A stretch of 60,985 bases of DNA, the filler included, from Nemertoderma westbladi (taxonomy: Eukaryota; Animalia; Xenacoelomorpha), in the NCBI GenBank assembly GCA_032718475.1. It is 2 parts of 2 records of this genome, joined end to end, with 100 filler letters (N's around TTAATTAATTAA, not from the genome) between each part and the next. Parts side by side here need not be neighbours in the genome. Positions count along the whole stretch, not along the records: positions 1 to 29,542 come from JAUCBJ010001916.1; 1 more part is not named here. One strand, written 5' to 3'. Within the stretch, counting starts at the first letter, position 1; every line of letters begins with the position of its first letter. Both the position numbers and the translations under genes were made by a program. The notes under the pieces are model-generated. The model was not told the origin of the DNA and ran no database searches. It worked only from the letters and a program-made list of their open reading frames with translations. This document shows, piece by piece, positions 3,771 to 50,160 of the stretch.

Positions 3771-5790
3771 TCTACCTGACTAATATCATTCGCGACGATT
3801 TTAAGAGATTATGTAATACATTATTAATACATGATTAATATTTATTTATTAATTCAACTTTTTACTTTTATTATATTATTTATTGACGCGGGGGTGGTCT
3901 AACGCATTCCACTAGATAGGCTCGTTCTTTGTCATTCCATGCTGGCTTTCTATTTCTTTTCGCCATCTTAATGTCTAAGTTAGTATGTAGTATAATGAGA
4001 GTCTCATTCGTATATTTAGGCAAGTCAATCTAGCATAAGACCCAAAATATATTTCCTTCCTATCATAAATTTTAGTGACAGAAAAATTTATTTTCTAATC
4101 ACATTTTCTACATTTCTCTGCTCGAACGCAGATCGAATAATGTAGGACCGTAATACATACAACAGTAGGCCTACATATAATTTGTATGAAATTATGTAAA
4201 TAAATAAATAAATTTATAAACGCAAAAGTATATCTCTGTCATTGCGTTATAGAAGTTTTAGTTTTAAGTTAAGGAGTTTAGTTTTAGCGAATTAGTTTTT
4301 GTTTACACGTTTTCCCCTTCTTTTCCTAGATTGAATGGACTACTTGTGGGCCTTTATTATTTTTTACAATTATAATACTCAAACTTGAATTCTATAAATA
4401 GTACGGTGGCTGAATTGTGCCACTTAATACTTTTTTTTATTTTTTTTTTGAAGCGACTTTTTGGTCGACCAAAAAGTACTTTTTGGTCGACCAATAAGTC
4501 GACTTTTTGGTCGACCAAAAAGTCTGGAAGTATTATCCAATAGAAAACATACAACTATTTTCGAGGCAAAATCAAATTACATTAAGTGAATTAGGTGGTT
4601 ATTTAAAACCGTAACACTATCATGATGAAGGATTAATATCCTAGGTACCGGTAGGCCTAGCGATCAATGTGTTTAACAAAGCTTTATGTACACCGGTACA
4701 GTAATTTGATTTTACCTCCAAAATAGTTATATATATGTTTTCTATTGGATAATACTTAAGTACTTTTTGGTCGACCATTAAGTATTTTTTGGTCGACCAA
4801 AAAGTACTTTTTGGTCGACCAATAAGTCGACTTTTTGGTCGACCAATAAGCAGATAAGTCGACTTTTTGGTTGAGCAATAAGTACTTTTTGGTCGACCAA
4901 AAAGTAGTTTTTGGTCGACCAATAAGTCGACTTTTTAGTCGACCAAAAAGAACTTTTTGGTCGACCAATAAATGACTTATTGGTCGACCAAAAAGTACTT
5001 CTTGGTCGACCAAAAAGTACTTATTGGTCGACCAAAAAGTACTTTTTGGTCGACCAAAAAGTCCCTTAAAAAAATAAATAAAAAAAAGTATTAAGTGGCA
5101 CAATTCAGCCACCGTAAAATAGTGATAGAGCTATAGTGATGAGATGGTATTATTTATCATTTAATTACTAATAGCGCTATTAAAGCCCTATTAGCACTAA
5201 TAATCCTATTAGTAAAAAGGACTATTAATATAATAATGTTTCAGGCAACGCTTTTTAAAATCGCTATTTACTAATAGCACTATTCACTATTAGTGCTAAT
5301 AGCCCTTTTAATCCTAATAGCGCGTCCAGCAACCCACCCCTGTCTGCCTGTACCTTTAAGATTAGGCGGCCTATTATCATTTCATTACATTATCTTTATA
5401 ACTTGGAGTCGGGAGTTGGAGCTCTTGCCATCAGGAAGAAACGTTAAGGAACACACAGACAGAAAGAAACCCCTGGTGCCTTAAACATAGAAAATCGTAT
5501 TGGTTTTGCTTTGCATATAACTGTATAACAGTATAAAGTCATTCATGATCAAGTGTATTTATTTGGTCACTTTTATGAAAAGCCGGAATGATGCCATCGA
5601 CAGATCGATGGGCATCAAATCATCAATCCCCCAGCCCAACCTGATTATTGATATATTGAAAACAGTATTACAATAGGAATAGCAGAATAGGCCTATCTGC
5701 CTATTACATTATTACATTACCATATATATTAGGCCTAACTAACGAAATCAGCCAAAATATTTACTATAGGCAGGAAGGCCCTTTCATCTG
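3771..5790. repeat. Local segmental duplication, copy 2, immediately upstream of the CLIP1-like gene
   Basis: Near-identical to 831-2611. Confidence 0.9.
4402..5116. mobile_element. Non-autonomous TIR/foldback element with internal palindromic subrepeats
   Basis: TIR TACGGTGGCTGAATTGTGCCACTTAATAC at both ends and a 6 bp duplication AAATAG (4396-4401, 5117-5122). The empty site is visible near 1447. Inside are arrays of TTTTGGTCGACCAAAAAGTAC. Confidence 0.85.
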
Positions 5791-5969
5791 TTCATTACTA
5801 CTGCATTAGCGATTGTATATATAAATTTATTTAGTAATTTATTTAGCAATTTATTACATTCAGATATTGGGAGTATTTATTAAGTGGATTAGTTTACTTA
5901 TTAATCCTGTAATCCAGTAATCAGCCACTACCGGCTGACCGGTAGGCTACACGATTACAGAGTTGCAGG

Positions 5970-8900
5970 ATGTCCGGCATACCGCGACGGCCCGGCATCC
6001 TAAAACCCCCCAGTCGGTTACCCCGACGGGGTTCAGCGCAGTCGCGTGGCGACGACCCCACCCCGCGATCTGACACGGCCAGCGTCGGATACTCCGAGAG
6101 CGATGTGCGCAGTCAGGGAACCGCCGGCCCCTTGGAGGATGTCCCGTCGTTTAAAATCGGCGACCGCGTGCTCGTGAGTGGAAGTAAACCGGGCGAGATC
6201 GTCTATCTCGGGGAGACTCTGTTCGCCGCGGGCGAATGGGCCGGGATCGTGTTGGACAAACCGGAGGGAAAGAACAACGGAAGCGTGGCGTCCACTGCTT
6301 ACTTCCATTGTCAACCTCTACATGGCATTTTCTGTAAACTCAACAAACTCATTAAAGACAACCGCGAAGCATCCTCTCGACTACACGATCTCCCCATAGG
6401 TAAACCAAATCAACAAAAACCAATCCTAGATAGCGGGTACTCGACGCCAGAGTTTAAAGTCGGCGATTTGGTTACCGTTTCCGGCAGTAAAGCTGGGATT
6501 GTTCGCTACACCGGGGAAACAAAGTTCGCTAAGGGTTACTGGGTGGGGGTTGAGTTGGACGATCCGTTGGGGAAGAACGACGGACAGGTTGGGGGTGTAC
6601 GGTACTTCCAATGCGAAGAGAAACACGGGTTGTTCGCTCCGGTGTCGAAACTCACAAAGACGGTTCTCAGCCGACCCAGCAGTCGGTTGTCTGTCGCGTC
6701 TGTTAGTAGCATCCCGGTAGCGGCGGTAGGGACCGTTAAAGGGCGCAAATCGAGCACCCCAGCGGCAGGGCAGGGGGGCACTGGGTTGGGGGGCACTGGG
6801 TTGGGTGGCACTGGCGGCAGTGGGTTTGGGAGCAGTCGGCGACTGGCTGGGAGTAGGGAGTCGTTAGCCTCGGTTAGCAGTGTTGGTAGCGGGATGGGTG
6901 GGAGCCGCAGACGCCGTGTCTCTGCCGACCTCCTAGGGGACCGGAGCCCTGGGACACGCAGCCCTGGGCCCCAACCGCGTCGGCTGATGTCCCTCTCGAC
7001 GCCGCCGCCTACCGAGCCAGTCGAAGCGGAGCTCGACAGACTGCGAACCCTCGTGGAGAACGCTGACAACGATAAGATGAAGTTGGTGTCCCTGTTGGAG
7101 GAGGAGAAACAGAAAGTGGAAGATCTGCAGTTCCGTTTGGAGGAGGAAAACATATTGAGAGGAGACCTCTCGGCCGAGGTGACTAAAGGGCAGAGCGAAG
7201 AGAGGGACAGAGAGGGTGAGATGGCGAGGTTACAGGACCACGTGGCCGACCTAGAGAGGAGACTGGAAGCGGCTGATCTAGCGAGGAAAGTAGCCGAGGC
7301 GGGAGGGAGGCAAGGAGGGGACCAGGAGAAACTGGTAGACAGTATGAAGGGAGATATTAGCGAACTAAATAGCGAGATTCTAAGGTTAAAGTCGAACAGA
7401 GAATCTCAAGATCAGTTGGTTTCTAATAAGGATGAGGCGGTTCGTTCATTGCAAGGGGAGTTGGGGAGTATGGGGGTGAAGGTGGGAGAGTTAGAAGGGG
7501 AGCTTAGGGAGGCTAGGGAGAAGCAGGATATGGTAGGTAGGGAGAGAGATGAGCTAGTGAGCTGTATGGATGGGTTGGAGCGGAGAAATGGGGAGCTCAA
7601 CAAACACAGTCGGAAACAGAGTTTGGTAATCAAGGAGAAAGAATCGCGTCTAGTGGAGGTTGAGACATCGTTGAGTCAGGCCAACCAGTCGGTTACCCAG
7701 ATGGTGGCCAGTCTTGGAGAAATAAAGGCAGATGCGAAGAAGGAAAGGGACCATATAATAGCCGAGTACGAGATTAAGCTGATGGAACAGGGTAATAAGG
7801 ACACGGAAGCGGGTGATAAAGATGCAGAGGCGGGGAATAAAGTTACAGAGGGGCATCATAAAGCTTTGGAGATGAAACACAAAAAATTGGAAACAGAACA
7901 CAAAACGTTGGAAACTGAACACACAAAGTTGGAAACGGGATACCATAAATTGGAAACAGAACACCAGAAATTGGAAAGAGAACACCAAAAATTGGAAACA
8001 GAACACCAAAAATTGGAAACAGATCACAAAAAAATGGAAACAGAATACAAAAAATTGGAAACAGAACACCAAAAATTGGAAACAGAACACCAAAAATTGG
8101 AAACAGATCACAAAAAATTGGAAACAGAATACAAAAAATTGGAAACAGAACACCAAAAATTGGAAACAGAACACCAAAAATTGGAAACAGAACACCAAAA
8201 ATTGGAAACAGATCACAAAAAATTGGAAACAGAATACAAAAAATTGGAAACAGAACACCAAAAATTGGAAACAGACCACAAAAAATTGGAAACAGAACAC
8301 CAAAAATTGGAAACAGAACACCAAAAATTGGAAACAGAACACCAAAAATTGGAAACACAACACAAAACGTTGGAAACAGACCACAAAAAATTGGAAACAG
8401 AACACAAAAAATTGGAAACAGAACACAAAACGTTGGAAACGGGATACCATAAATTAGAAATGGAACACAAAAATATTGAAACGGAATATAAAACGCGGGA
8501 AACTCAAAACAAAACTTTAAAAACAGACAATAAAAAGTTGGAAAATGACCAAAAAATGGTTGAAGCAGAACACAAAAAGTTGGAAGTGGAAAGCGACGAT
8601 CGGATACAGAGGCTGAACAAAGAGAATCTTGAACTCCGAGCTTCTATTGAGTGTCTAACGGCACAAGTACAAACGCTGACCCGATCTCTAAACGGAGCTC
8701 TGAGTAGACAACAACAAAACCAGGACGACAAACAGTTGGAACTCCGGATTGGTGAACTAACCAATGAAAATAATATGTTAATTAAAAAACGAGAGGAAAG
8801 TATGAAAATTAATGACGAGAAAGACTTGCAGATATCCAACTTCAACTCGATAGTAAATGAGTTAAATACGAAAAATCAGGAGTTGACAGAGTTTAAGGTA

Positions 8901-9881
8901 GAAGCCGTGGAGGTTGGTAAGGTGAGTGAGGAGGTTAAACGTACGAACAAGGAACTCATGGAAGCACAGAGACAGACAGATGTGTCAGTGAAGGATTTGG
9001 AACTACAAAGGGATTCTTTACTGAAGGAGTTGGCCAATGTCGAAGCCGATAAGGTTGACATCAAGTTGAATCGGGATCAGTTAGTGGCCCAAGTCGAGGT
9101 GTTCAAAGGGAAGTTGGAGATGCAGAAAGAAACGTTTGGTAAGGAGATGCGAGAAAACGAGGGAAAGTTAGATGAGTATCTGAAGAGGATGGAATCGTTG
9201 GAGAAATCCAGGGATGAAAGTTCCGAGAATCTCAGGGAGAAAAACTACGAAATGTCAAATAAAATAAAAGAATTTAATGTTCAGCGGGAACTTTGGTTAA
9301 AAAAAGACGATTTGCTAAAGTCCAATAAAAATGAACTCGATTTGGCGAAGAAAACTCTGGGTGAGTTTCGAGATAAGTTTATGGAAATTGAAAACTCGAA
9401 ATTGCAACTGAAATCGCAGAAACAGAAAGCCGAACAAAGCGTAAAAAAACTTAAGAATGAAGCCGAGGAAAGTAAGAAAAAGTTTGATAAAGAAATTGAG
9501 ACTTATAAGGCAGATATTAGCGTTTTAACTGCGCGGATTAATGATAAAGAAACCATTTCTGTTGATCCGAGCGTTCAGTTTCTCAACTCTGTAATTATTG
9601 AACTACAAGAGAAGAATAAACGATTGGAGTCGGAGTTACATTCAGCCCGGGATGATTCCTACATGTCGCCTCCGTCCAAGGGGGTCACCACGGCGCCTCG
9701 CATGTTCTGCGACATTTGCGACAGATTCGACTTACACGAGACCGAGGATTGTCCGACACAGGGGTCCGACAGTGAGGCCGACCACTCGCGTCACGGCAGT
9801 CTGCCCCAACGGCCCTACTGCGGGATCTGCGAGATGTTCGGTCATGCAACCGAAGACTGCGACGACGAACAGACGTACTGA
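5970..9881 (+). CDS. CLIP1: CAP-Gly domain-containing linker protein (CLIP-170/CLIP-190 homologue), single exon, 1303 aa
   Basis: Two CAP-Gly domains (GKNNGSV, GKNDGQV), Ser-rich linkers, a long coiled coil, two C-terminal zinc knuckles (CDICDRFDLHETEDC, CGICEMFGHATEDC) and an acidic-aromatic tail DDEQTY. Confidence 0.95.
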   Translation: MSGIPRRPGILKPPSRLPRRGSAQSRGDDPTPRSDTASVGYSESDVRSQGTAGPLEDVPSFKIGDRVLVSGSKPGEIVYLGETLFAAGEWAGIVLDKPEGKNNGSVASTAYFHCQPLHGIFCKLNKLIKDNREASSRLHDLPIGKPNQQKPILDSGYSTPEFKVGDLVTVSGSKAGIVRYTGETKFAKGYWVGVELDDPLGKNDGQVGGVRYFQCEEKHGLFAPVSKLTKTVLSRPSSRLSVASVSSIPVAAVGTVKGRKSSTPAAGQGGTGLGGTGLGGTGGSGFGSSRRLAGSRESLASVSSVGSGMGGSRRRRVSADLLGDRSPGTRSPGPQPRRLMSLSTPPPTEPVEAELDRLRTLVENADNDKMKLVSLLEEEKQKVEDLQFRLEEENILRGDLSAEVTKGQSEERDREGEMARLQDHVADLERRLEAADLARKVAEAGGRQGGDQEKLVDSMKGDISELNSEILRLKSNRESQDQLVSNKDEAVRSLQGELGSMGVKVGELEGELREAREKQDMVGRERDELVSCMDGLERRNGELNKHSRKQSLVIKEKESRLVEVETSLSQANQSVTQMVASLGEIKADAKKERDHIIAEYEIKLMEQGNKDTEAGDKDAEAGNKVTEGHHKALEMKHKKLETEHKTLETEHTKLETGYHKLETEHQKLEREHQKLETEHQKLETDHKKMETEYKKLETEHQKLETEHQKLETDHKKLETEYKKLETEHQKLETEHQKLETEHQKLETDHKKLETEYKKLETEHQKLETDHKKLETEHQKLETEHQKLETEHQKLETQHKTLETDHKKLETEHKKLETEHKTLETGYHKLEMEHKNIETEYKTRETQNKTLKTDNKKLENDQKMVEAEHKKLEVESDDRIQRLNKENLELRASIECLTAQVQTLTRSLNGALSRQQQNQDDKQLELRIGELTNENNMLIKKREESMKINDEKDLQISNFNSIVNELNTKNQELTEFKVEAVEVGKVSEEVKRTNKELMEAQRQTDVSVKDLELQRDSLLKELANVEADKVDIKLNRDQLVAQVEVFKGKLEMQKETFGKEMRENEGKLDEYLKRMESLEKSRDESSENLREKNYEMSNKIKEFNVQRELWLKKDDLLKSNKNELDLAKKTLGEFRDKFMEIENSKLQLKSQKQKAEQSVKKLKNEAEESKKKFDKEIETYKADISVLTARINDKETISVDPSVQFLNSVIIELQEKNKRLESELHSARDDSYMSPPSKGVTTAPRMFCDICDRFDLHETEDCPTQGSDSEADHSRHGSLPQRPYCGICEMFGHATEDCDDEQTY
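7866..8590 (+). repeat. Coding 21 bp minisatellite (LETEHQK heptad), about 30 copies
   Basis: TTGGAAACAGAACACCAAAAA repeated in frame within the CLIP1-like ORF. Confidence 0.95.
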
Positions 9882-13650: not shown

Positions 13651-13935
13651 TTTCAGTTTAGGCACTCTATTGATTGTCTTTAAGGGCCTGAGGACTCTGA
13701 GTACGCGAAGAGACTTCACGGCTCCGGCAGCGCCACCTTGTTTGCTACCGTGGCTGCTACTCCCGACCATAATGCAGAAGCTGACGATAGCGCAGATAAC
13801 GACAACGGCGTCGACGAGGTTCCAGAGGTCACGGCAGTACGCCCCGGGGTGCAGGACGAGGCCAAGGTCAACCACCTTGATTAGCAGTTCGAACGTAAAA
13901 ACCGCGGTAAAAAACCAATCAAACTTCTCCAAAAT
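13651..13935 (-). CDS. Cav2: Cav2 exon, IIIS2-S4 (voltage sensor)
   Basis: [16 protein letters not shown]...[22 protein letters not shown], 285 nt, TTTTAG acceptor and GTAAGT donor. Confidence 0.95.
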
Positions 13936-14218
13936 CTAAAATGTGATTTTCAAAATCTAATTAATAACATAAAAAAAACCGGTTTATCATGACTGTTTAT
14001 GTTCAATATATTACACACAATTTATTAAAATCTCACCAGCAGTTATTCTATCATAAATATTTTGAGAGAAAAATTGAAATCAGAGTAATATCAAAAAAAG
14101 TTTAGCAAAAACTTTAGAAACACACATCTTTGGAATTTATACAATTATTAGTAATCAGTATAGCAAGCGTACGATCTAGGATTTATAGTGAGTTACTTTC
14201 TTATAAATATGTAATTAC

Positions 14219-14348
14219 TTTGTTTCGGATTCCTTCTGTATAAACTGGATCTTCTAAAGCCAATGAGACACTGCTGAATATAATGAAGACCAAAATAACC
14301 GTCTCGAAATGTTTAAAACTGACGACTGCGTGAGCACCACGTCGAATC
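14219..14348 (-). CDS. Cav2: Cav2 exon, IIIS1 (not in the ORF track)
   Basis: (P)IRRGAHAVVSFKHFETVILVFIIFSSVSLALEDPVYTEGIRNK. Its phase-2 start completes the CC|G Pro codon of the previous exon. Confidence 0.93.
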
Positions 14349-14361
14349 CTATTGAAAACAA

Positions 14362-17300
14362 ATAAACAACGAGGTACGTGGGAGGGTCAGAATAACTTAC
14401 GGATTGGTCGGTCCCAGTATAAACAACGAGGTACGTGGGAGGGACAGAATAACTTACGGATTGGTCGGTCCCACCCAGTATAAACAACGAGGTACGTGGG
14501 AGGGACAGAATAACTTACGGATTGGTCGGTCCCAGTATAAACAACGATGTACGTGGGAGGGACAGAATAACTTACGGATTGGTCGGTCCCAGTATAAACA
14601 ACGAGGTACGTGGGAGGGACAGAATAACTTACGGATTGGTCGGTCCCAGTATAAACAACGAGGTACGTGGGAGGGACAGAATAACTTACGGATTGGTCGG
14701 TCCCAGTATAAACAACGAGGTACGTGGGAGGGACATAATAACTTACGGATTGGTCGGTCCCACCCAGTATAAACAACGAGGTACGTGGGAGGGACAGAAT
14801 AACTTACGGATTGGTCGGTCCCACCCAGTATAAACAACGAGGTACGTGGGAGGGACAGAATAACTTACGGATTGGTCGGTACTAGTATAAACAACGAGGT
14901 ACGTGGGAGGGACAGAATAACTTACGGATTGGTCGGTCCCACCCAGTATAAACAACGAGGTACGTGGGAGGGACAGAATAACTTACGGATTGGTCGGTCC
15001 CACCCAGTATAAACAACGAGGTACGTGGGAGGGACAGAATAACTTACGGATTGGTCGGTCCCACCCAGTATAAACAACGAGGTACGTGGGAGGGACAGAA
15101 TAACTTACGGATTGGTCGGTCCCAGTATAAACAACGAGGTACGTGGGAGGGACAGAATAACTTACGGATTGGTCGGTCCCAGTATAAACAACGAGGTACG
15201 TGGGAGGGACAGAATAACTTACGGATTGGTCGGTCCCAGTATAAACAACGAGGTACGTGGGAGGGACAGAATAACTTACGGATTGGTCGGTCCCAGTATA
15301 AACAACGAGGTACGTGGGAGGGACAGAATAACTTACGGATTGGTCGGTCCCAGTATAAACAACGAGGTACGTGGGAGGGACAGAATAACTTACGGATTGG
15401 TCGGTCCCAGTATAAACAACGAGGTACGTGGGAGGGACAGAATAACTTACGGATTGGTCGGTCCCAGTATAAACAACGAGGTATGTGGGAGGGACAGAAT
15501 AACTTACGGATTGGTCGGTCCCAGTATAAACAACGAGGTACGTGGGAGGGACAGAATAACTTACGGATTGGTCGGTCCCAGTATAAACAACGAGGTACGT
15601 GGGAGGGACAGAATAACTTACGGATTGGTCGGTCCCAGTATAAACAACGAGGTACGTGGGAGGGACAGAATAACTTACGGATTGGTCGGTCCCAGTATAA
15701 ACAACGATGTACGTGGGAGGGACAGAATAACTTACGGATTGGTCGGTCCCAGTATAAACAACGAGGTACGTTGGAGGGACAGAATAACTTACGGATTGGT
15801 CGGTCCCAGTATAAACAACGAGGTACGTGGGAGGGACAGAATAACTTACGGATTGGTCGGTCCCACCCAGTATAAACAACGAGGTACGTGGGAGGGACAG
15901 AATAACTTACGGATTGGTCGGTCCCACCCAGTATAAACAACGAGGTACGTGGGAGGGACAGAATAACTTACGGATTGGTCGGTCCCAGTATAAACAACGA
16001 GGTACGTGGGAGGGACAGAATAACTTACGGATTGGTCGGTCCCAGTATAAACAACGAGGTACGTGGGAGGGACAGAATAACTTACGGATTGGTCGGTCCC
16101 ACCCAGTATAAACAACGAGGTACGTGGGAGGGACAGAATAACTTACGGATTGGTCGGTCCCAGTATAAACAACGAGGTACGTGGGAGGGACAGAATAACT
16201 TACGGATTGGTCGGTCCCACCCAGTATAAACAACGAGGTACGTGGGAGGGACAGAATAACTTACGGATTGGTCGGTCCCAGTATAAACAACGAGGTACGT
16301 GGGAGGGACAGAATAACTTACGGATTGGTCGGTCCCAGTATAAACAACGAGGTACGTGGGAGGGACAGAATAACTTACGGATTGGTCGGTCCCAGTATAA
16401 ACAACGAGGTACGTGGGAGGGACAGAATAACTTACGGATTGGTCGGTCCCAGTATAAACAACGAGGTACGTGGGAGGGACAGAATAACTTACGGATTGGT
16501 CGGTCCCAGTATAAACAACGAGGTACGTGGGAGGGACAGAATAACTTACGGATTGGTCGGTCCCAGTATAAACAACGAGGTACGTGGGAGGGACAGAATA
16601 ACTTACGGATTGGTCGGTCCCAGTATAAACAACGAGGTACGTGGGAGGGACAGAATAACTTACGGATTGGTCGGTCCCAGTATAAACAACGAGGTATATG
16701 TGGGAGGGACAGAATAACTTACGGATTGGTCGGTCTCAGTATAAACAACGACGTACGTGGGAGGGACAGAATAACTTACGGATTGGTCGGTCCCAGTATA
16801 AACAACGAGGAACGTGGGAGGGACAGAAAAACTTACGGATTGGTCGGTCCCACCCAGTATAAACAACGAGGTACGTGGGAGGGACAGAATAACTTACGGA
16901 TTGGTCGGTCCCAGTATAAACAACGAGGTACGTGGGAGGGACAGAATAACTTACGGATTGGTCGGTCCCAGTATAAACAACGAGGTGCGTGGGAGGGACA
17001 GAATAACTTACGGATTGGTCGGTCCCAGTATAAACAACGAGGTACGTGGGAGGGACAGAATAACTTACGGATTGGTCGGTCCCAGTATAAACAACGAGGT
17101 ACGTGGGAGGGACAGAATAACTTACGGATTGGTCGGTCCCAGTATAAACAACGAGGTACGTGGGAGGGACAGAATAACTTACGGATTGGTCGATCCCAGT
17201 ATAAACAACGAGGTACGTGGGAGGGACAGAATAACTTACGGATTGGTCGGTCCCACCCAGTATAAACAACGAGGTACGTGGGAGGGACAGAATAACTTAT

Positions 17301-20300
17301 GGATTGGTCGGTCCCAGTATAAACAACGAGTTACGTGGGAGGGACAGAATAACTTACGGATTGGTCGGTCCCAGTATAAACAACGAGGTACGTGGGAGGG
17401 ACAGAATAACTTACGGATTGGTCGGTCCCAGTATAAACAACGAGTTACGTGGGAGGGACAGAATAACTTACGGATTGGTCGGTCCCAGTATAAACAACGA
17501 GGTACGTGGGAGGGACAGAATAACTTACGGATTGGTCGGTCCCAGTATAAACAACGAGGTACGTGGGAGGGACAGAATAACTTACGGATTGGTCGGTCCC
17601 ACCCAGTATAAACAACGAGGTACGTGGGAGGGACAGAATAACTTACGGATTGGTCGGTCCCAGTATAAACAACGAGGTACGTGGGAGGGACAGAATAACT
17701 TACGGATTGGTCGGTCCCAGTATAAACAACGAGGTACGTGGGAGGGACAGAATAACTTACGGATTGGTCGGTCCCACCCAGTATAAACAACGAGGTACGT
17801 GGGAGGGACAGAATAACTTACGGATTGGTCGGTCCTAGTATAAACAACGAGGTACGTGGGAGGGACAGAATAACTTACGGATTGGTCGGTCCCAGTATAA
17901 ACAACGAGGTACGTGGGAGGGACAGAATAACTTACGGATTGGTCGGTCCCACCCAGTATAAACAACGAGGTACGTGGGAGGGACAGAATAACTTACGGAT
18001 TGGTCGGTCCCACCCAGTATAAACAACGAGGTACGTGGGAGGGACAGAATAACTTACGGATTGGTCGGTCCCAGTATAAACAACGAGGTATGTGGGAGGG
18101 ACAGAATAACTTACGGATTGGTCGGTCCCAGTATAAACAACGAGGTACGTGGGAGGGACAGAATAACTTACGGATTGGTCGGTCCCAGTATAAACAACGA
18201 GGTACGTGGGAGGGACAGAATAACTTACGGATTGGTCGGTCCCAGTATAAACAACGATGTACGTGGGAGGGACAGAATAACTTACGGATTGGTCGGTCCC
18301 AGTATAAACAACGAGGTACGTGGGAGGGACAGAATAACTTACGGATTGGTCGGTCCCAGTATAAACAACGAGGTATGTGGGAGGGACAGAATAACTTACG
18401 GATTGGTCGGTCCCAGTATAAACAACGAGGTACGTGGGAGGGACAGAATAACTTACGGATTGGTCAGTCCCAGTATAAACAACGAGGTACATGGGAGGGA
18501 CAGAATAACTTACGGATTGGTCGGTCCCAGTATAAACAACGACGTACGTGGGAGGGACAGAATAACTTACGGATTGGTCGGTCCCAGTATAAACAACGAG
18601 GAACGTGGGAGGGACAGAAAAACTTACGGATTGGTCGGTCCCACCCAGTATAAACAACGAGGTACGTGGGAGGGACAGAATAACTTACGGATTGGTCGGT
18701 CCCAGTATAAACAACGACGTACGTGGGAGGGACAGAATAACTTACGGATTGGTCGGTCCTAGTATAAACAACGAGGTACGTGGGAGGGACAGAATAACTT
18801 ACGGATTGGTCGGTCCCAGTATAAACAACGAGGTACGTGGGAGGGACAGAATAACTTACGGATTGGTCGGTCCCACCCAGTATAAACAACGAGGTACGTG
18901 GGAGGGACAGAATAACTTACGGATTGGTCGGTCCCAGTATAAACAACGAGGTACGTGGGAGGGACAGAATAACTTACGGATTGGTCGGTCCCAGTATAAA
19001 CAACGAGGTACGTGGGAGGGACAGAATAACTTACGGATTGGTCGGTCCCACCCAGTATAAACAACGAGGTACGTGGGAGGGACAGAATAACTTACGGATT
19101 GGTCGGTCCCACCCAGTATAAACAACGAGGTACGTGGGAGGGACAGAATAACTTACGGATTGGTCGGTCCCACCTAGTATAAACAACGAGGTATGTGGGA
19201 GGGACAGAATAACTTACGGATTGGTCGGTCCCAGTATAAACAACGAGGTACGTGGGAGGGTCAGAATAACTTAAGGATTGGTCGGTCCCAGTATAAACAA
19301 CGAGGTACGTGGGAGGGACAGAATAACTTACGGATTGGTCGGTCCCAGTATAAACAACGAGGTACGTGGGAGGGACAGAATAACTTACGGATTGGTCGGT
19401 CCCAGTATAAACAACGAGGTACGTGGGAGGGACAGAATAACTTACGGATTGGTCGGTCCCACCCAGTATAAACAACGAGGTACGTGGGAGGGACAGAATA
19501 ACTTACGGATTGGTCGGTCCCAGTATAAACAACGAGGTACGTGGGAGGGACAGAATAACTTACGGATTGGTCGGTCCCACCCAGTATAAACAACGAAGTG
19601 CGTGGGAGGGACAGAATAACTTACGGATTGGTCGGTCCCACCCAGTATAAACAACGAGGTACGTGGGAGGGACAGAATAACTTACGGATTGGTCGGTCCC
19701 AGTATAAACAACGAGGTACGTGGGAGGGACAGAATAACTTACGGATTGGTCGGTCCCAGTATAAACAACGAGGTACGTGGGAGGGACAGAATAACTTACG
19801 GATTGGTCGGTCCCACCCAGTATAAACAACGAGGTACGTGGGAGGGACAGAATAACTTACGGATTGGTCGGTCCTAGTATAAACAACGAGGTACGTGGGA
19901 GGGACAGAATAACTTACGGATTGGTCGGTCCCAGTATAAACAACGAGGTACGTGGGAGGGACAGAATAACTTACGGATTGGTCGGTCCCACCCAGTATAA
20001 ACAACGAGGTACGTGGGAGGGACAGAATAACTTACGGATTGGTCGGTCCCACCCAGTATAAACAACGAGGTACGTGGGAGGGACAGAATAACTTACGGAT
20101 TGGTCGGTCCCAGTATAAACAACGAGGTACGTGGGAGGGACAGAATAACTTACGGATTGGTCGGTCCCAGTATAAACAACGAGGTACGTGGGAGGGACAG
20201 AATAACTTACGGATTGGTCGATCCCAGTATAAACAACGAGGTACGTGGGAGGGACAGAATAACTTACGGATTGGTCGGTCCCACCCAGTATAAACAACGA

Positions 20301-22156
20301 GGTACGTGGGAGGGACAGAATAACTTACGGATTGGTCGGTCCCAGTATAAACAACGAGGTACGTGGGAGGGACAGAATAACTTACGGATTGGTCGGTCCC
20401 AGTATAAACAACGAGGTACGTGGGAGGGACAGAATAACTTACGGATTGGTCGGTCCCACCCAGTATAAACAACGAGGTACGTGGGAGGGACAGAATAACT
20501 TACGGATTGGTCGGTCCCAGTATAAACAACGAGGTACGTGGGAGGGACAGAATAACTTACGGATTGGTCGGTCCCAGTATAAACAACGAGGTACGTGGGA
20601 GGGACAGAATAACTTACGGATTGGTCGGTCCCACCCAGTATAAACAACGAGGTACGTGGGAGGGACAGAATAACTTACGGATTGGTCGGTCCTAGTATAA
20701 ACAACGAGGTACGTGGGAGGGACAGAATAACTTACGGATTGGTCGGTCCCAGTATAAACAACGAGGTACGTGGGAGGGACAGAATAACTTACGGATTGGT
20801 CGGTCCCACCCAGTATAAACAACGAGGTACGTGGGAGGGACAGAATAACTTACGGATTGGTCGGTCCCACCCAGTATAAACAACGAGGTACGTGGGAGGG
20901 ACAGAATAACTTACGGATTGGTCGGTCCCAGTATAAACAACGAGGTACGTGGGAGGGACAGAATAACTTACGGATTGGTCGGTCCCAGTATAAACAACGT
21001 GGTACGTGGGGGGGACAGAATAACTTACGGATTGGTCGGTCCCAGTATAAACAACGATGTACGTGGGAGGGACAGAATAACTTACGGATTGGTCGGTCCC
21101 AGTATAAACAACGAGGTACGTGGGAGGGACAGAATAACTTACGGATTGGTCGGTCCCAGTATAAACAACGAGGTACGTGGGAGGGACAGAATAACTTACG
21201 GATTGGTCGGTCCCAGTATAAACAACGAGGTACGTGGGAGGGACAGAATAACTTACGGATTGGTCGGTCCCAGTATAAACAACGAGGTACGTGGGAGGGA
21301 CAGAATAACTTACGGATTGGTCGGTCCCAGTATAAACAACGAGGTACGTGGGAGGGACAGAATAACTTACGGATTGGTCGGTCCCAGTATAAACAACGAG
21401 GTACGTGGGAGGGACAGAATAACTTACGGATTGGTCGGTCCCAGTATAAACAACGAGGTACGTGGGAGGGACAGAATAACTTACGGATTGGTCGGTCCCA
21501 GTATAAACAACGAGGTACGTGGGAGGGACAGAATAACTTACGGATTGGTCGGTCCCAGTATAAACAACGAGGTACGTGGGAGGGACAGAATAACTTACGG
21601 ATTGGTCGGTCCCAGTATAAACAACGAGGTACGTGGGAGGGACAGAATAACTTACGGATTGGTCGGTCCCACCCAGTATAAACAACGAGGTACGTGGGAG
21701 GGACAGAATAACTTACGGATTGGTCGGTCCCAGTATAAACAACGAGGTACGTGGGAGGGACAGAATAACTTACGGATTGGTCGGTCCCAGTATAAACAAC
21801 GAGGTACGTGGGAGGGACAGAATAACTTACGGATTGGTCGGTCTCAGTATAAACAACGAGGTATGTGGGAGGGACAGAATAACTTACAGATTGGTCGGTC
21901 CCATTATAAACAACGAGGTACGTGGGAGGGACAGAATAACTTACGGATTGGTCGGTCCCAGTATAAACAACGAGGTACGTGGGAGGGACAGAATAACTTA
22001 CGGATTGGTCGGTCCCACCCAGTATAAACAACGAGGTACGTGGGAGGGACAGAATAACTTACGGATTGGTCGGTCCCACCCAGTATAAACAACGAGGTAC
22101 GTGGGAGGGACAGAATAACTTACGGATTGGTCGGTCCCAGTATAAACAACGAGGTA
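14362..22156. repeat. 57/61 bp minisatellite, about 134 units, filling a Cav2 intron
   Basis: Unit CCCAGTATAAACAACGAGGTACGTGGGAGGGACAGAATAACTTACGGATTGGTCGGT. I counted 35 units carrying a 4 bp CCCA insertion. Confidence 0.98.
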
Positions 22157-22473
22157 TAGGGCAGAATTGGTTTAGCGCCCTCAGATGCCTCAGAATCTTT
22201 ACTAATGCCTTTCATCTGTTCGAGTTTAGTGGAACCCCTTCGCGGTGAATTCTTGATATTATTATTATCCAACGGTTTCCCTGCTCCACCGATGGTGGGC
22301 GTGTCTTTGTAACGACCATTGAAGGAGGCACTTCGCTCTTGTTTCTGGAATGCCTCGAGTTCAGTTTGCAGTACCGAATAGTCGGGCCCTTCTGTTAGTG
22401 TCGGACGCTGTTGGCTGTTCGACGGACTCGCCGAAATGACATTGAATGAAGACGCCCGATTCTGATTTACGAA
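22124..22473 (-). CDS. Cav2: Cav2 exon, II-III cytoplasmic linker (not in the ORF track)
   Basis: 350 nt open frame ending EGAKPILPYTSLFILGPTNP, which matches the Cav2 pre-IIIS1 motif. ATTTCAG acceptor, GTAAGT donor, phases fit both neighbours. Confidence 0.9.
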
Positions 22474-22665: not shown

Positions 22666-22796
22666 CTGTAGAGCGATCTCTTCCTCTTTGAATTTCCGCT
22701 CAGCATCAGCCTTCTCCTCATCTCGTGTCAGCTGTTGGGCGTTGGCAAGATTGTCCACAGCGATAGCCAAGAATACATTGAGCAATGTGTAATTAC
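22666..22796 (-). CDS. Cav2: Cav2 exon, IIS6 and start of II-III linker
   Basis: (G)[27 protein letters not shown]...EIALQ. GCAG acceptor, GTAGG donor. Confidence 0.95.
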
Positions 22797-22907
22797 CTGC
22801 GATTATAAATAATTCATTGAATCAAACGAAAAGTAAACTTTTATTTATAGTAACAATGTATTGGCAAACTGTATTTTTCGAGGTGTTTGTTATTATACAT
22901 TTATTAC

Positions 22908-23164
22908 AGGAAGGGATCTAGTGGTTGTAGTTTCGTCTTCCACCTCGAGGTCCCAGGTTCGAATCCGACACCACGCTGATGAGACCCAGTAAGGTCGAAA
23001 CGCGTACGTGGTTTGGAGAGATACGTGGTTTGGTTTCGCAGGTAAACTCTCTAAAATACAGCGGTGCAATCATATGGAACTCACTAAAAACAGAATTTAA
23101 AATGTGCAAATCAAAAAACACACTAGCTAGAAAATTAAAACTTCATATGTTAAGTGAACTTTAA
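22908..23164 (+). mobile_element. tRNA-derived SINE-like element with hammerhead body and LINE-like tail
   Basis: A-box-like TCTAGTGGTT and B box GGTTCGAATCC, then a hammerhead, then sequence translating as SLKYSGAIIWNSL...LARKLKLHML (L2/CR1-group ORF2 C-terminus). Confidence 0.65.
22970..23012 (+). ncRNA. Minimal type I hammerhead ribozyme
   Basis: ACCACG-CTGATGA-GACC-cagtaa-GGTC-GAAA-cgcg-TA-CGTGGT. The core is intact, stems I and II are perfect, and loop III is palindromic. Predicted cleavage after 23006. Confidence 0.85.
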
Positions 23165-24559
23165 TTCCAATATAGTTGCGTATCACTATTAAATTATAAA
23201 ATAAATAAAAATTATCCTAAATTTCGTAACTTCGTAATGCTATCACTCCATCGTCATCGTCAACGCTATTTGCATCATGACTAAATAATATATGAACTAA
23301 CATTTTTTTTTTTTCTTTTTTTTTTAAAACGTAAACGAAATTTAAAATAAAATTAAAATTGCAATTTCGGCACAATACAATACAGTTACTATTATTAGAA
23401 AAATAAACTTAAAATAAAATTTAAAACTGAAATTTCGGCACATTAAAATAAAGTTACTATTATTAGAAAAATTGCACTGATATATGGCATCGAAGAATAT
23501 ACTCAGGATCACTGGCAGACATCACCATAATAAGCCAACCGGTGTACCACATCACGATTCTCTGAGAAAAAGAAGGTAAGAGGCAAAACTAGCTATGCTA
23601 CTGCTTTCTCTCCTTTTTTTTTTTGAACAGAACATAAAACGAATAACGCACCCCCTAAAACCATATTACATCAGAACAAAACAAAAATTACAAACAAACG
23701 TTCACTGGTGCAATGATTTTATAATTAAATATTGTGGTATCCCATTATGCGAATAATACACGAGCTCGTTCGAGCTCCATTGATTGATTGAGATATGAGA
23801 TATTAATTTCAAGAAAAATTACGCGATTCCTAAATTTGTACACTACCCGGTTAAAAAGTACGCATGTGATGGGATTAGTCCTACAATTGCGCCAATTAAA
23901 GATAAGTTATTTTCGGTAAAATAAACTTATCATTCGAGGGTAAGACCCCTAGACTCCTTCCTATAATAAACTTTTATTTGGCCGTTAGGCCCGAGATTAA
24001 GCACTAAATCCGCAAAAAAAATTTACCCAAAAAAATATCCCCATAAAAACGAATTATACCAAGTTTCACAAAAACTTTCTTCAGCCTCCAACCTGTCTAT
24101 AGTTTTTCATATATATATCGCGATAGACCTGCAATGAATATTAAGCTCTACATGATGTTTAGACTTTACACGAACTAAATTGATCATTTCAGGTCGAACA
24201 AGCATGTTTTTAATTCTGCACGGTAATGTGAAACAGTTTATTTTATGATCGATGTTTATTACTTATCACTTTAACCTCAAATGTTGGGTTATGCCGGTTT
24301 GCTTCTTTTGCGCATTAACTTGGGAACTATCACTTATTTTAGGCGTCTGTCTACACCCACTAAATCGATCATTGCGCATTCAATAAGACAATTTTTGACC
24401 GAGTAGCGTTCTAAGACGTATCATTTATAGTGGACTTTCATATGACATCGATTTGACGCAACGATGTTAAGTTGAATATGACATTTATGACAAACCCCCC
24501 ATTGTGCAATATTTTTGGGCTAGTTCCTTTAAAGCATTTGTACCAAAACAAAAACTCCC

Positions 24560-24710: not shown

Positions 24711-24919
24711 CGATGAGTGTAAGAACGATAAAGAAGGCTGAGTATGCCATGCTGGGTCCATCCAGACCCTCCCCGTCGCGGGGTTCCCCATTTACTGCCT
24801 TTATCCCGTCGTACATGACGGCATTCCAGTCCTCGCCAGTAAGGATTTGGAACACCGTTAGGATGGCGATGGGGAAAGAATCAAAATTAGCAGAAGGGCG
24901 GCCGTCACTGAAATTAAAC
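24711..24919 (-). CDS. Cav2: Cav2 exon, domain II pore loop and start of IIS6
   Basis: [39 protein letters not shown]...[10 protein letters not shown], containing the selectivity filter TGEDW. AG/GT boundaries. Confidence 0.95.
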
Positions 24920-29542: not shown

Positions 29543-29642
29543 NNNNNNNNNNNNNNNNNNNNNNNNNNNNNNNNNNNNNNNNNNNNTTAATTAATTAANN
29601 NNNNNNNNNNNNNNNNNNNNNNNNNNNNNNNNNNNNNNNNNN
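29543..29642. other. Assembly gap with artificial six-frame stop linker
   Basis: 100 bp block of N with TTAATTAATTAA at its centre (29587-29598). Confidence 0.9.
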
Positions 29643-35200: not shown

Positions 35201-36086
35201 TATTCGACAATTTAGTAATCCTGTAATCACTAGGCCTGTAATCATACAACCGGGTATCCAATACAGTAGTCACCTACAGTACGGTATGCCTGTATGTATA
35301 TATATATATGTATGTATGTATAGTAAATATATATAAGAACTGCTATAGAATCATACAAGCCCAAAAAAAAATGTATATATTATTTAGCAATATTTATCCA
35401 TCTCTGTTGGCTTTATTTTTCTTCTTTTTTAATGTAATCTAGATGAAATCCTTTAACTCCAGATTCCGAATCTGAAAGCCATTCTAAATTTTATCAAAAA
35501 TTGCGAAAGATGTTATCAAAACACTAAAATAACACACTGTAATTTTTGAGACATAAATCGCTATAATTCCAATGTTTTTTCTCTTTATTCTAGAATATTA
35601 ATTATTATTTAGTTGTGCCTTTAAACTCTCCATCTTTATTTTTACAACAGCGATTTACGTCTCAAAATTTACAGTGTGTTATTTTAGTATTTGATAATAT
35701 CTTTCGCAATTTTTGATGAAATTTAAAACGGCTTTCAGATCCAGAATCTGCGGATGAAGGCGGTTCTCATAATATCTAGACTACATTCAAAAGATGAAAA
35801 ATAAAGCTGACAGATATGGTGAAATATTTCTAAATAGACATTTTTTAAGGGCTCTTGTATGGAAATAATTGAGAAATTGAAAAATCCGTCCTGGCCAGCA
35901 GTAAGAAAAGGTGTCAAGCTATCATCATACCAAATTTCATAGCATTTTATTGAAATTTGATAAAATTAGGGGGGGGGGGGGTGGGGTGGGGGCGGGGGGG
36001 GGGGGGTGCTCCGGTCCGCTAAAAATGGTTGTATTATATTAAGGGAGATGGTGTAATATTGTGCTGTAGTTTAATCTTTTACATAC

Positions 36087-40500: not shown

Positions 40501-42153
40501 AAATTAATATATTTTAAATTTTTGTTACTGCAACGATAATTCTGAATCATCCCTGTGGGGAGAAATATTTATTACTGCCGTATTTTTTAGGCATTTTTAT
40601 TGTTTCAAACTGAGGTTTTTATTATTTATATTTTGACCCCATGCACTTCCAGTAAACTCGGCCATGGGAATTGGAATAAGCCGGGTAATAAATATATATT
40701 TCAAATTGTACAAAACCAAAACAATAATTTCATAACAACATAAATTACAAATTATACTGTAAGTATTTCGTATTTTTGACTTGATAACGGACCCTTTGCC
40801 TATAGAGGTCCAGTTATTATAATTTATAAATTTTATAAATTAATTTAGAGACAAAAATACTGGAGAGGTAAAACGGTTAATATACAGTATCTATAACCTT
40901 TGTTCATAAATTTGTTGGTTAGAAATCCCGGTCATTCTGACTTTTTACTATAAAATTTGAAATGGAATTGATTTTTAAAAAATTTAAAAACTTTCACGAA
41001 TGGCATATTCCGACTTAGATCAGCATTATTGTTCCAAATATATGGTAATCGTAAAAACAACGTAAAATTTCACGCTTTTTAGAACGGCATCTTGTAATTG
41101 AAAACACAAGCAATTTATATGAATATATAATTTAATATTTAAACAATATATAATAATAATATTAATGAAATTAATTACACTAATTAAATAAACAAGAAAC
41201 AATCTGAAACAATCTCGACTTACAATTCATCACACAATAACCATGCCAACTTTTTTCCAATCCTCTCTGCCTCTCCTCTATTCTATATCAATGCAATAGC
41301 AGTACGGTAAGTTGACTTCACTACAATTGATTATATTAGCCAGTTTGCTAATATAATATTAATATTATTTAATATTTAATTTATTTAATTACTCTAAAAG
41401 ACACCGACGAAATATTATAAAATTAACAGATTCAAAATCAGGTTGATTGAAATTCTCGATAAATGCTATAATTTGGTCTGGGCATTTTTTATAATATATA
41501 TAGCATTATTATAAATAGTATTACTAATTTATTTAGTAATTTTAAGAAAAAGACACGAGCAAAAGATTTTAAAAATATCAGGGTCGGAACCAGGGTGTTG
41601 AAGTATACCAAAAAATGAAATCAGTTAGTTTGGGCATTTTTATTTTATAAAACGTTGGTTCAGCCCCACCGTGCCACCCTCCACCCCATTTTTGTGCAAG
41701 GAAACAACACTTATAATGCTCTCTGACATGTCTGGTGTGTTCCAAAAGTCACTGGGATTGAACAATTGTAATTGGAATACATCTTCATGGGGTTTTCTTT
41801 GTAATTAAGTAGAGCTTTAAAAGTTCAATATTAAATTTTTTATTAAATAATACTTTTTTGTTTTTTTTGTTAATTTGAGTATTCTGTATTTGCTGGTATT
41901 GTATTTTTGGTGTTTTATTTTGTTATTAATTTTGGTGTTAATTATTTTTTATTAATCCAGGGAACACTCGTATTAACTCAGGGTCCTCACACGTTAATTC
42001 AGGGCCACCCTTGTTAGCTCAGGGTCCACCCTTGTTAATTCAGAACCATCTCTATTACCTCAAAAAAATCGAATGAATTTTTTTTATATCATAAGGTTTT
42101 CTAAGGTGTTGAATTGATTGAAAATGGTTTTAAATAAGTTGCTTGTATATACA

Positions 42154-42760
42154 ATCCGGATCATGGATCCGGAAGTCAGGTGAGGACCTTCGAATACGTA
42201 AGGGAAAGGCATGGGCAGCCTTGAATAGGCTTTCCAGGATTTGGAAGTCACCGAGAATTAAGCGGAAACTTAAGGTCCGGTTATTTAGAGCAGCAGTAGT
42301 TCCAGTACTCCTCTATGGGAGTCCATGCTGGGCTCTAACTGCTGAGGACACCAAATCTCTGGATGGCACATTCACAAGAATGCTACGCCGGGTTCATTGT
42401 GTCAAGTTCAATGCACACATCTCCAACCAGACACTATATAACATTGGAGGTGTCTTATTGGTTCCCCAAGCTTGACACTAGAACAAAATCGCCTCCGCTT
42501 TGCAGGACATTGCTTTCGCCATGAGGACCAGCCAGTGCATAATCTTGTACTTTGGCAGCCTCATGGAGTGAATAAGCATGGTGGACAGCCCATGACTTTC
42601 TTGAGACGCATCTTAAAGGACACTGGCCTTGAAGATGCGGATGATCTTTCAAATGTCATGGGTGATAGGGAGTTGTGGCGGTGCAATTTTGTCGATAAGC
42701 CGGCACGGCATTCTTAAAAATGCAGCTACAATGCAGCATGCCGATCCTAGTAGTAGTAAT
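42154..42760 (+). mobile_element. RTE LINE 3' fragment
   Basis: GSWI...GKAWAALNRLSRIWKS...RLRFAGHCFR, followed by a TAG-repeat tail. Confidence 0.88.
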
Positions 42761-42782
42761 ACCATTTTGTGTGATGTGTTAT

Positions 42783-43195
42783 GTTAACAATTTCAGACGC
42801 GGGTTACCAATTTCAGTCCCCGGTTACCAATTTAAATCCGTGATTACCAATTCAAGTGACTGGTTACCAATTTCAGTCACTGGTTTCCAATTCAGTTTCT
42901 GGTTTCAAATTTCAGTCCCCGGTTACCGATTTCAGTTTCTGATTTCCAATTTCAGTCCCAGGTTACCAATTTCAGTCACTGGTTACAAATTTCAGTCACT
43001 GGTTACCAATTTCAGTCGCCGGTTACCAATTTCAGTCCCAGGTTACCAATTTCAGTCACCGGTTACAAATTTCAGTCACTGGTTACCAATTTCAGTCGCC
43101 AGTTACCAATTTTAGTCCCCGGTTACTAATTTCAGTTTCCAATTTCTAGTTACCAATTCAATTTCCGGTTACCAATTTCAGACCCCAGTTACCCA
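42783..43195. repeat. 20 bp minisatellite (GGTTACCAATTTCAGTCNCN)
   Basis: About 20 diverged tandem units. Confidence 0.9.
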
Positions 43196-45607
43196 ACCCC
43201 AGCTATAGTATATGGTTACCCCGACCCTTCCACCCCAAAATACCAACCCCCCCCCCCCCCCCACCAAAAAATGTTTCATTTAAAATATATTTACAATAAC
43301 TAATTGTTGTGGAATACTATATATATTATTATTGATGACTACTGATTCGTATGCATGGTTGAAATTTTGCACATAATTTCAAGAAGAATTCACTTTAGTG
43401 CAAAGAATTATAATTTATATAATGTTCTCTGGTATCTCTGGTGTGTTCCAAAAGACTTCCACTTCCACCAGCTTAGGGTTATGTGTTACTTCCACAAATA
43501 ATAATACACAAGTAATATAAATTGGGGGGGGGGGGGGGGGGTCTATGCGCCTGTCGATTTATACGAATCGACAGGCGCAACAAAAGTATTTGGAATATTA
43601 TGCCCATGTATATTTATATATGTAAGCCTTAAAGTATAAACAAATCTGACCTTAACAAAATCAAGGTAGGCATTTGTTATTTTCCATCAGCAACATGGGC
43701 TTTAACTTTTAACTTTACATGGGATTAATAATACTGTAATATTCTAAAACAATACCACATGGCCAACGCCGTCGGCCATGCGCTCGCACGGCGCAAATGC
43801 TCCATTTGCGCTCTCCACCTGGATGGTCTGGCTGCCACTGGAGAGCCAAAGGCTCGACAGAGTCTTATGAGGAATAAATAATGCAGCCTTTTTAATGGAA
43901 CTTAGCAAACCAACATAAACACCAAAGTAAAACCTCATAAGATAGCATTATATCGAACCCCTTGTCAAGTAGGCACTTTGCTTTGATCTTTTTTAGGTCG
44001 ATTTTTAAAGGATTTTTCCAGGAGAATGGCGAAAGCTAGAACGATTCTGTTTGCGCGATCTTATAGATGTCCCGAGCGCGCACAGCAGAGAAATTTTTGG
44101 CAAAAATCTGTTAATTAATTAATTAGTAATTAGCGATTAAAGATTTCTAATTGATTTTTCTCGAAAAGTATTTGGTTTTTCACCTAGCAACGGTGTTTTT
44201 TTTTGTTCATCTCGGTAAGATCTAAAAAAAGTTCAGTCATCGCTATGGCCCTCCTATTACTGTTAATTAGTACTAATTAGCCGAAAACTAATTAGCGTCG
44301 TAACTCGAAAACACTAAGAGCTATGAAAAAACGTAACATCACAAAGTTGTTCGGAATTTTATTCTACACAAAAAAGTCTCTGGCGCCGATGCCGTATCTC
44401 CTACCGTTAATTAGTAATTAACTAATTACTTAATTACCTAATTGGCGGGGGGGCTTTGTCCCCCCCGCCCCCAAATCCTTATTCACAAGGTGTATCAAAG
44501 CGGTTTACTATTTTACAAATGATAATTATTCTAAAATCTTTTGAATCGAACTAATTAACGATTTTACTAATTAGTAAAGTTTCCCAAATTAATTAATAAT
44601 TTATCCAATCCGGCTGCAATTATTAATAAGCTGATTGATCAGCCTGGTTCAGCAAAAGTCAGCAGTTGGTAGTATGCTCAAAAAACTGTGTTCATACTAC
44701 TGACCTATGCCGGTCTGCCGGTAGCTACTACCTAGCTCTGTCTGTATGTAGCTAATCATAGTCTGCAGTGCCGGTGTTCTCTGGGTCTGCTATCGGTACT
44801 GTCAGTCCGAGCTGTATGCACTGCTTGCCTAGAACAACCACATCCGGTACAGCCAGACAGCAGTACAGCGCCGCGGTACCGGGTACCTTTTGTCTGTTCT
44901 TAAGACATGTACAGATGTAAGGGGACGCTTTAGGCTTTCTGGCAGTTATTTAAAACGTTGTAGGCAGATGCCCAAGGTTGGCAATAATGTTCCCCATGTT
45001 CGGGCGCACTCTGAATGCCTAAATTACGGTTGTTTGGTGCAGTTAAAAGTTTCCCAACTTGTAGGCCTATGTAATTGCGTTATTTCAATACCTCACCCAG
45101 GGCTATCTGACGGAATGGATTTTGACCATCAAGGTGGGTAGAGGCCATTGATGGGTATCTGATGCATGCAACAGAAAATTTCATCAGACCGAAATCATGC
45201 AGTCAGGACATGATCTTTACTGACCGTGTACCGGTAGGTGTCCTGCCTATAGGCAATAACATTTTTTGATATAATATTATGTGAATATGTTTTGGCCGGT
45301 AATCTGAAGCTGCAGTCTGGGTCTCAGGTCGAGACAAGACCGTGGTCACCATATCTGGCACCTGATTGGCTCTTACTTTCAAACGTCGAAAATGTGCCCA
45401 GGCCTTGATATTTTACGGTACAATTTTATGCGAAAATGTTTTGGACGGTACTCTGAAGCTCCAGTTTGGGTCCCAGGTCGCGACCATACTGTGGTCACCA
45501 GATACGGCCTCTGATTGGCTGATTCTTTGAACGTTAATAACTCGAGTTTTATTCACGGATGATGCCCCGACAGCCCGACTCACTGATGATGTTTCATAGC
45601 TGTGACG

Positions 45608-50140: not shown

Positions 50141-50160
50141 CCATTTTGTGTGATGTGTTA

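Follow-up and report, generated by a model that had tools for sequence, protein, structure and literature searches.

How can a gene still be spliced correctly when one of its introns is built almost entirely from copies of its own 5' splice site? This question is raised by a Cav2 channel gene of Nemertoderma westbladi (GenBank assembly GCA_032718475.1), found on a 60,985-nucleotide stretch of DNA, hereafter the window, in which two parts of two records are joined end to end (positions 1 to 29,542 come from JAUCBJ010001916.1). The third Cav2 intron in the window (22123–14349, minus strand; 7775 nt) consists almost entirely of a single tandem array that reiterates the border between the preceding exon and the intron, including its 5' splice site, or donor. 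We read this array as a donor-spanning minisatellite and, most likely, as a tolerated expansion in which the spliceosome would choose the first donor.

Tandem Repeats Finder (TRF) describes one array with a period of 57, 134.3 copies and 96% matches. Each repeat unit comprises the final 33 nt of the exon encoding the linker between domains II and III (22156–22124) and the initial 24 nt of the intron. The exon-intron border of the first unit is fixed by protein collinearity, as the joint between 22124 and 14348 reads ...GPTNP-IRRGAH..., collinear with invertebrate Cav2 proteins; the splice site is thus reiterated through the intron. Splitting the array gives 133 full units, of which 97 are 57 nt long, 35 carry a 4-nt insertion and measure 61 nt, and one measures 59 nt, followed by a 52-nt last piece; only 13 nt of non-repeat intron (14361–14349) precede the acceptor. 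Among the 134 donor positions, 132 read GTAAGT (the real donor and 131 copies), one reads TTAAGT and one ATAAGT. The frame stays open through the first donor only (1/134 positions), and splicing from any of the 133 downstream positions would lead to a stop of the CCG TAA type right after GPTNP. These numbers agree with the initial annotation of this DNA, which had proposed the same unit of 33 exon and 24 intron nucleotides starting at GTAAGT, had accounted for the intron as 52 + 133x57 + 35x4 + 2 = 7775 with 13 nt outside the repeat, had estimated about 130 intact donors, and had foreseen a stop behind every donor but the first.

The host gene is, on sequence comparison, rightly labelled Cav2, because its IIIS2-S4 exon matches domain III of Cav2.3 in the PDB best (95.4 bits) and domain III of Cav1.3 less well (63.1 bits), and because those homologs, among the matches listed, that carry a channel-type name are type A or cacophony, that is, invertebrate Cav2, at identities of up to 65%. 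No homolog of this exon exceeds 65% identity among the matches listed (120 of 1103; proteins over 2000 aa lay outside the search), the linker exon gave 0 matches in a search against 1.84 billion representatives, and the protein searches found no protein of the species itself. Six exons join to an open frame of 421 aa that extends from the domain II pore to the domain III pore, with GT-AG at all five introns. Of the listed differences between sequencing run X2 and the window, 4 lie in 1072 exon bases and 17 in 1458 other bases; for run X3 the counts are 0 in 415 exon bases and 4 in 307 other bases. All four exonic X2 differences, at 22180, 22327, 22363 and 24844, are synonymous, which holds for 23% of possible changes (p about 0.003). 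Given the open frame and these synonymous differences, the gene looks alive and its coding sequence looks constrained. A short duplication at 13936–13960 (minus strand) gives the IIIS2-S4 exon a second AG, 21 nt upstream of its acceptor, the use of which would introduce an in-frame stop.

The same data make it improbable that the six exons are a partial, unexpressed Cav2 copy in which the array has no splicing consequence whatsoever. Such a copy would account for the finding that no exon of domain I, early domain II, late domain III or domain IV was recovered in the 36 kb upstream or the 13 kb downstream, a search in which weak hidden Markov model (HMM) matches at 41948–41820, 49325–49197 and 35327–35434 (E 0.66–1.5) were discarded as noise. 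The upstream interval includes a gap at 29543–29642, made of two N runs around a 12-nt spacer with stops in all frames, and the Cav2 exons cannot be taken as securely joined across it to the upstream half of the window. The open frame, the intact borders of all five introns, the synonymous exonic differences and the lower count of differences in exons than in introns argue against a dead copy. So does the arrangement of the other genes in the window, which lie on the opposite strand in long single reading frames, as nested genes in long introns often do.

The array itself is real, multi-copy DNA. Its upstream flank is partly present in four sequencing runs from three studies, none recorded as RNA, and contigs from 31-mer graphs were aligned to both flanks, each taken with about one unit. 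The unique upstream contigs of X1 and X2 stop at 22127, the very point at which an array starting at 22156 forces a 31-mer graph to branch; in X1, X2 and X3 alike, the upstream contigs match the unit and the unique downstream contigs cross the acceptor into the last unit. An 87-nt contig representing one full circular unit has a depth of 1249 in X2, 708 in X3 and 22.5 in X4, and the X1 unit lies in pieces, with a depth of 499 for the main contig. Flank depths are 17–26 in X1, 11–23 in X2 and 14–35 in X3. The resulting unit-to-flank ratios are roughly 20–30 for X1, 20–50 for X3 and 55–110 for X2, where the assembly predicts about 98–110, with about 98 for an entire consensus unit; contig depth is a rough measure and not a copy number, the X1 figure lacks four contigs, and the X2 figure is uncorrected for variant units. 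X4 contains the unit apart from any unique flank and the kind of run is only guessed, so that it counts solely as presence in a third study; neither X4 nor X5 covers a Cav2 exon. X2 is from a different individual (21 listed differences from the window), and the array is therefore not an artefact of one sample. X1 is identical to the window flanks over 369, 1177 and 777 nt; it may be the source of the assembly and so is not independent evidence. Read depth, which the initial annotation had named as a check on array length, thus upholds the array as real and points to tens of copies, probably unequal between samples, and not specifically to 134. The apparent difference in copy number seems to be about 2–3-fold, and the array looks like a variable-length minisatellite.

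These ratios also bear on whether the assembly overstates the length of a real array, which would be compatible with a tolerated expansion and which we hold to be unlikely. X1, despite its identical flanks and a share of units with the 4-nt insertion (24%) close to that of the window (26%), shows the unit at only 20–30 times the flank depth, and X3, which has the same sample label, likewise falls below the predicted ratio. The two runs carry different flank alleles, so their sample may be heterozygous or pooled, and contig depth is rough. The X2 ratio implies that long alleles exist. In addition, rare variants occupy ordered multi-unit blocks with no scattered indels, as in maps of real minisatellites: a 10-unit variant block occurs at units 22 and 71, with 8–9 of its units also at 35–36, and none of 300 shuffles reached 10. 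Unequal exchange in a real minisatellite would be expected to leave recurring ordered blocks of this kind.

If the array is real and its copies carry equivalent donors, how would the correct one be found? All copies are equal in donor strength, so the winner would have to be picked by position and not by sequence. The spliceosome would take the first donor and treat the remaining copies as intron. Two features could give this donor its advantage: it alone lies 350 nt from the upstream acceptor, as suits exon definition, and it is transcribed first. Use of the second, third and last donors would lengthen the exon to 411, 472 and 8073 nt, respectively. Rare slips to donor 2 or 3 would incorporate the stop codon, and such transcripts would likely be removed by nonsense-mediated decay (NMD). 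The proposal of the initial annotation that a neutral expansion is tolerated through exon definition is in keeping with this reading.

Its other proposal, a copy-number-tunable switch or a landing pad for the U1 small nuclear ribonucleoprotein, finds no support. As a selected device, the array would divert Cav2 transcripts to NMD or to a suppressive two-domain product (domains I-II plus linker), an idea we regard as very improbable. It gains some appeal from the stop that every downstream donor brings in at the end of the II-III linker, from the retention of GTAAGT in 131 of the 133 downstream copies, and from mammalian Cav2.2 domain I-II constructs that, in the available part of the report, bind the full channel and lower its surface expression (PMC4940211). 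The stop is simply the TAA of GTAAGT read in phase 2, for which no selection is needed, and the retention of donors equals the outcome of 0.6% substitution per base. Donor bases show no sign of being either spared or preferentially removed: 2 of 23 variant alleles fall on them, against an expectation of 2.4, and so do 2 of 43 changed bases, against 4.5 (p 0.32), in a test of low power with 23 alleles. Globin, Adh and troponin C genes moreover have published border-spanning arrays, and this favours a mutational process over a device specific to channels. Copy number is without effect on donor choice in F7 (1–12 units) and on one-unit retention in ABCA7. A broader version, in which a length-variable array of more than 100 live donors sets the share of Cav2 transcripts stopping after the II-III linker and allele length thereby tunes the presynaptic dose of the channel through NMD or a dominant-negative product, while the array also replaces nearly the whole intron and its branch point, appears very improbable.

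The uniqueness that the initial annotation implied proved wrong, as this kind of arrangement is already published and named in F7, CBS, 6-16, ABCA7 and the amphioxus mirages; the Cav2 array stands out by the gene that hosts it, by having taken over nearly all of its intron and by a length that seems to vary. The comparisons that follow refer to the parts of these reports that were available. In intron 7 of human F7, the first unit of a 37-bp variable number tandem repeat (VNTR) of polymorphic copy number spans the border of exon 7, and only the most upstream donor is used with 1–12 units, a choice that improving the downstream copies does not alter (Borensztajn et al. 2006, PMC1557585). The same report lists 6-16 (25 pseudo-sites), CBS intron 13 (15–20), LMNB2 (10–15 x 100 bp) and PDGF intron 4 (16–18 x 81 bp) as cases of like design. 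As in F7, the first Cav2 unit spans the exon-intron border and identical donors trail the real one. Unlike F7, which has 5–9 copies with 4 exon nucleotides in the unit, the Cav2 array has 134 copies with 33, reaches within 13 nt of the acceptor and apparently holds the branch point; donor use was measured in F7, whereas here it is predicted from DNA sequence.

The amphioxus 'mirage' minisatellites of the Adh3, globin, troponin C and PGBD5 genes are close invertebrate counterparts, and splicing is apparently undisturbed by them (Ebner et al. 2010, PMC3087553; PMC3902484). They share with the Cav2 array a position over an exon-intron border with its splice signals; their length is unstable, as that of the Cav2 array seems to be, and their end units escape homogenisation, as its last unit may have done. 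They differ in scale, as the globin mirages contain 2–6 units of about 150 bp, some of which copy the acceptor side, and the present array sits in the Cav2 gene of another animal. No donor-spanning minisatellite in a Cav2 gene was found in the literature searched, which held scant subscription papers.

The 25-bp VNTR in intron 18 of human ABCA7, with 12 to about 427 units and up to 10.7 kb (De Roeck et al. 2018, PMC5954066; PMC13747324), is the case that matches or exceeds the Cav2 array in scale. Both arrays begin at the donor, and use of the second-unit donor leads to a premature stop in ABCA7 and would do so in Cav2; in ABCA7, retention of one unit is low, NMD-sensitive and unchanged with length (PMC5954066). 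Array length is accompanied there by increased skipping of exon 19 (3.2-fold) and by 33% lower expression (PMC5954066). The ABCA7 unit, unlike that of Cav2, starts at GT and, in the portions available, is not presented as copying the end of the exon, and its length effects are measured, whereas the Cav2 array is seen at the DNA level.

The ABCA7 example raises the prospect that the Cav2 array is unselected but not silent, with long alleles cutting the dose of full-length Cav2 through leakage to donor 2 or 3, skipping of the IIIS1 exon or slower splicing. We deem this unlikely and give such a length-dependent side effect of the ABCA7 kind, on the next exon or on expression, no more than a modest chance. 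Besides the ABCA7 precedent, it could draw on the seemingly 2–3-fold difference in copy number between samples, and skipping of either flanking exon (350 or 130 nt) would shift the frame. Six units, moreover, carry a new TAG after a pyrimidine tract and offer possible cryptic acceptors. The use of downstream donor copies is, on the other side, independent of length in both F7 and ABCA7, and the coding sequence remains constrained alongside the long arrays of the assembly and of X2.

Several points weigh against a tolerated expansion governed by the first donor. The exon side of the donor is weak (TCC), and the site matches the complement of U1 at 6 of 11 positions, compared with 6–8 for the other five donors. 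The linker exon is already long at 350 nt, which weakens exon definition, and the last copy together with the acceptor forms a 52-nt mini-intron that could be favoured in an organism that defines short introns. The donor test described above has little power, and the choice of donor is extrapolated from other species, mostly mammals. Among those, 6-16 and CBS also splice at the one or two copies right after the real donor, according to the available part of the F7 report (PMC1557585), and longer ABCA7 arrays come with more skipping of the following exon and with reduced expression (PMC5954066); 'no effect' may therefore be too strong a description. A first donor that is strongly favoured, and an expansion that is tolerated, nonetheless remain the reading we prefer.

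The far end of the intron would also have to function. A branch-point-like CTGAC lies 38 nt from the end of the intron, the stretch from there to the acceptor is free of AG, and the word agrees with the branch-point consensus YTRAY, on which its predicted function rests. The consensus unit has CTGTC, CTGAC occurs in the last unit and in one other, and branch-like words are found at just three places in the whole 7775-nt intron. The X1 and X2 contigs carry the same CTGAC letter in the last unit. This variant would fit a working intron by supplying the predicted branch point; alternatively, an end unit spared from homogenisation may simply have kept the ancestral base. The other CTGAC unit (19250–19280, minus strand) also contains the dead donor TTAAGT.

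Other signals within the array are sparse. The six units in which a G>A change creates the TAG are located at 20693, 19875, 19175, 18760, 17836 and 14883 (minus strand); in four of the six, a 13-nt cryptic micro-exon would open and be closed by the next donor copy, and in one the TAG is followed by GT. An array of recursive (ratchet) splice sites was considered and rejected, as YAG is present in only 6 of 133 units, one of them followed by GT (GTGGGA). The array was also rejected as coding DNA, since its long stop-free frames follow from the 57-nt period and no test pointed to genes. The sense strand of the intron has 0 AATAAA or ATTAAA signals for premature polyadenylation. Predicted RNA folds of 1, 2 and 4 units, considered as a structure that might mask the copies, are weak, at -9, -19 and -38 kcal/mol, calculated without a shuffle control.

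How such an array could arise is suggested by the unit itself. Its intron part resembles the exon just upstream of the unit border at 10 of 11 nt (ATTCTG-CCCT); homology scores as high were obtained in 170 of 20000 shuffles and in 0 of 1090 other exon windows. A short homology between the exon end and the intron start may have seeded a duplication across the border, or, alternatively, most of the 'intron' part of the unit may be an altered exon copy. Amplification likely proceeded by slippage and unequal exchange, and turnover would be ongoing, with length differences between individuals. The far end of the array is a 15-nt partial unit. CpG transitions make up 5 of the 23 variant alleles in the units (1.1 expected), as in methylated DNA. 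The neighbourhood is rich in other minisatellites and duplications, with tandem repeats covering 3618 of 53190 bases outside the array.

The features of the Cav2 gene and its array are collected in the table below.

Features of the Cav2 gene and of the donor-spanning array in the window, in transcript order
Feature	Position	Strand	Basis
Most upstream Cav2 exon found in the window: domain II pore loop, start of IIS6	24711..24919	-	tblastn, HMM, AG/GT borders, open frame
Cav2 exon, end of IIS6 and start of II-III linker	22666..22796	-	tblastn, HMM, open frame
Cav2 II-III linker exon, 350 nt; last 33 nt are the exon part of the first unit	22124..22473	-	frame; 3 synonymous X2 differences
57-bp minisatellite, 134.3 copies, 131 intact donor copies past the real one	14362..22156	-	TRF, unit splitting, DNA contigs X1-X4
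First, frame-preserving 5' splice site TCC/GTAAGT, phase 2 (putative)	22118..22123	-	sole position of 134 keeping the frame
Branch-point-like CTGAC, A at 14387 (putative)	14386..14390	-	YTRAY consensus
Non-repeat intron, 13 nt, with acceptor TAG at its end	14349..14361	-	unique contigs of X1, X2 and X3 cross into the array
Cav2 exon, IIIS1, 130 nt	14219..14348	-	tblastn, HMM, open frame
Cav2 exon, IIIS2-S4, 285 nt	13651..13935	-	PDB match to Cav2.3 domain III; PF00520; homologs Cav2 type A alpha-1
Most downstream Cav2 exon found in the window: IIIS5, start of domain III pore loop	12975..13135	-	tblastn, HMM, open frame

Several genes in the remainder of the window run opposite to Cav2, an arrangement compatible with nesting in long introns. 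An apparently intronless open frame of 1311 codons (5946–9881, plus strand) encodes a CLIP-170-like protein with two CAP-Gly domains and CLIP1 zinc knuckles, and contains a coding repeat (21 bp x 34, 7876–8585) of seven-residue heptads of the HQKLETE type; it is possibly nested in a Cav2 intron. A sulfatase gene (PF00884; 25537–28307, plus strand) lies just upstream of the first Cav2 exon found and may likewise be nested. Further along, two single-frame MFS transporter genes (51150–52564 and 57135–58511, plus strand) are 96.5% identical, and a 2.6-kb segment that includes a remnant of a long interspersed nuclear element (LINE) and a 20-bp minisatellite is duplicated at 97% (41285–43826 and 48658–51236); the transporter pair and this segment are recent local duplications. 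Short interspersed elements at 22850–23025 and 23790–23970 belong to very high-copy families in the genome, with a summed depth of several hundred thousand in X1 and X2 compared with about 20 for unique sequence. A further minisatellite, at 4454–5062, has a 22-bp unit with a palindrome around GTCGAC.

What the array means for the organism depends on whether it affects the channel. It would gain greater importance only if its length changes Cav2 output, and the truncated domain I-II product, if made, would be of interest, as the mammalian Cav2.2 domain I-II suppresses the full channel in the available part of the published account (PMC4940211). If neutral, the array offers a clean natural setting in which to test first-donor choice outside mammals, within a constrained gene with alleles of seemingly different length. 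With 131 identical decoy donors closer to the acceptor than the real donor, the last only 52 nt away, it could separate exon definition from transcription order as the protector of the first donor in this lineage.

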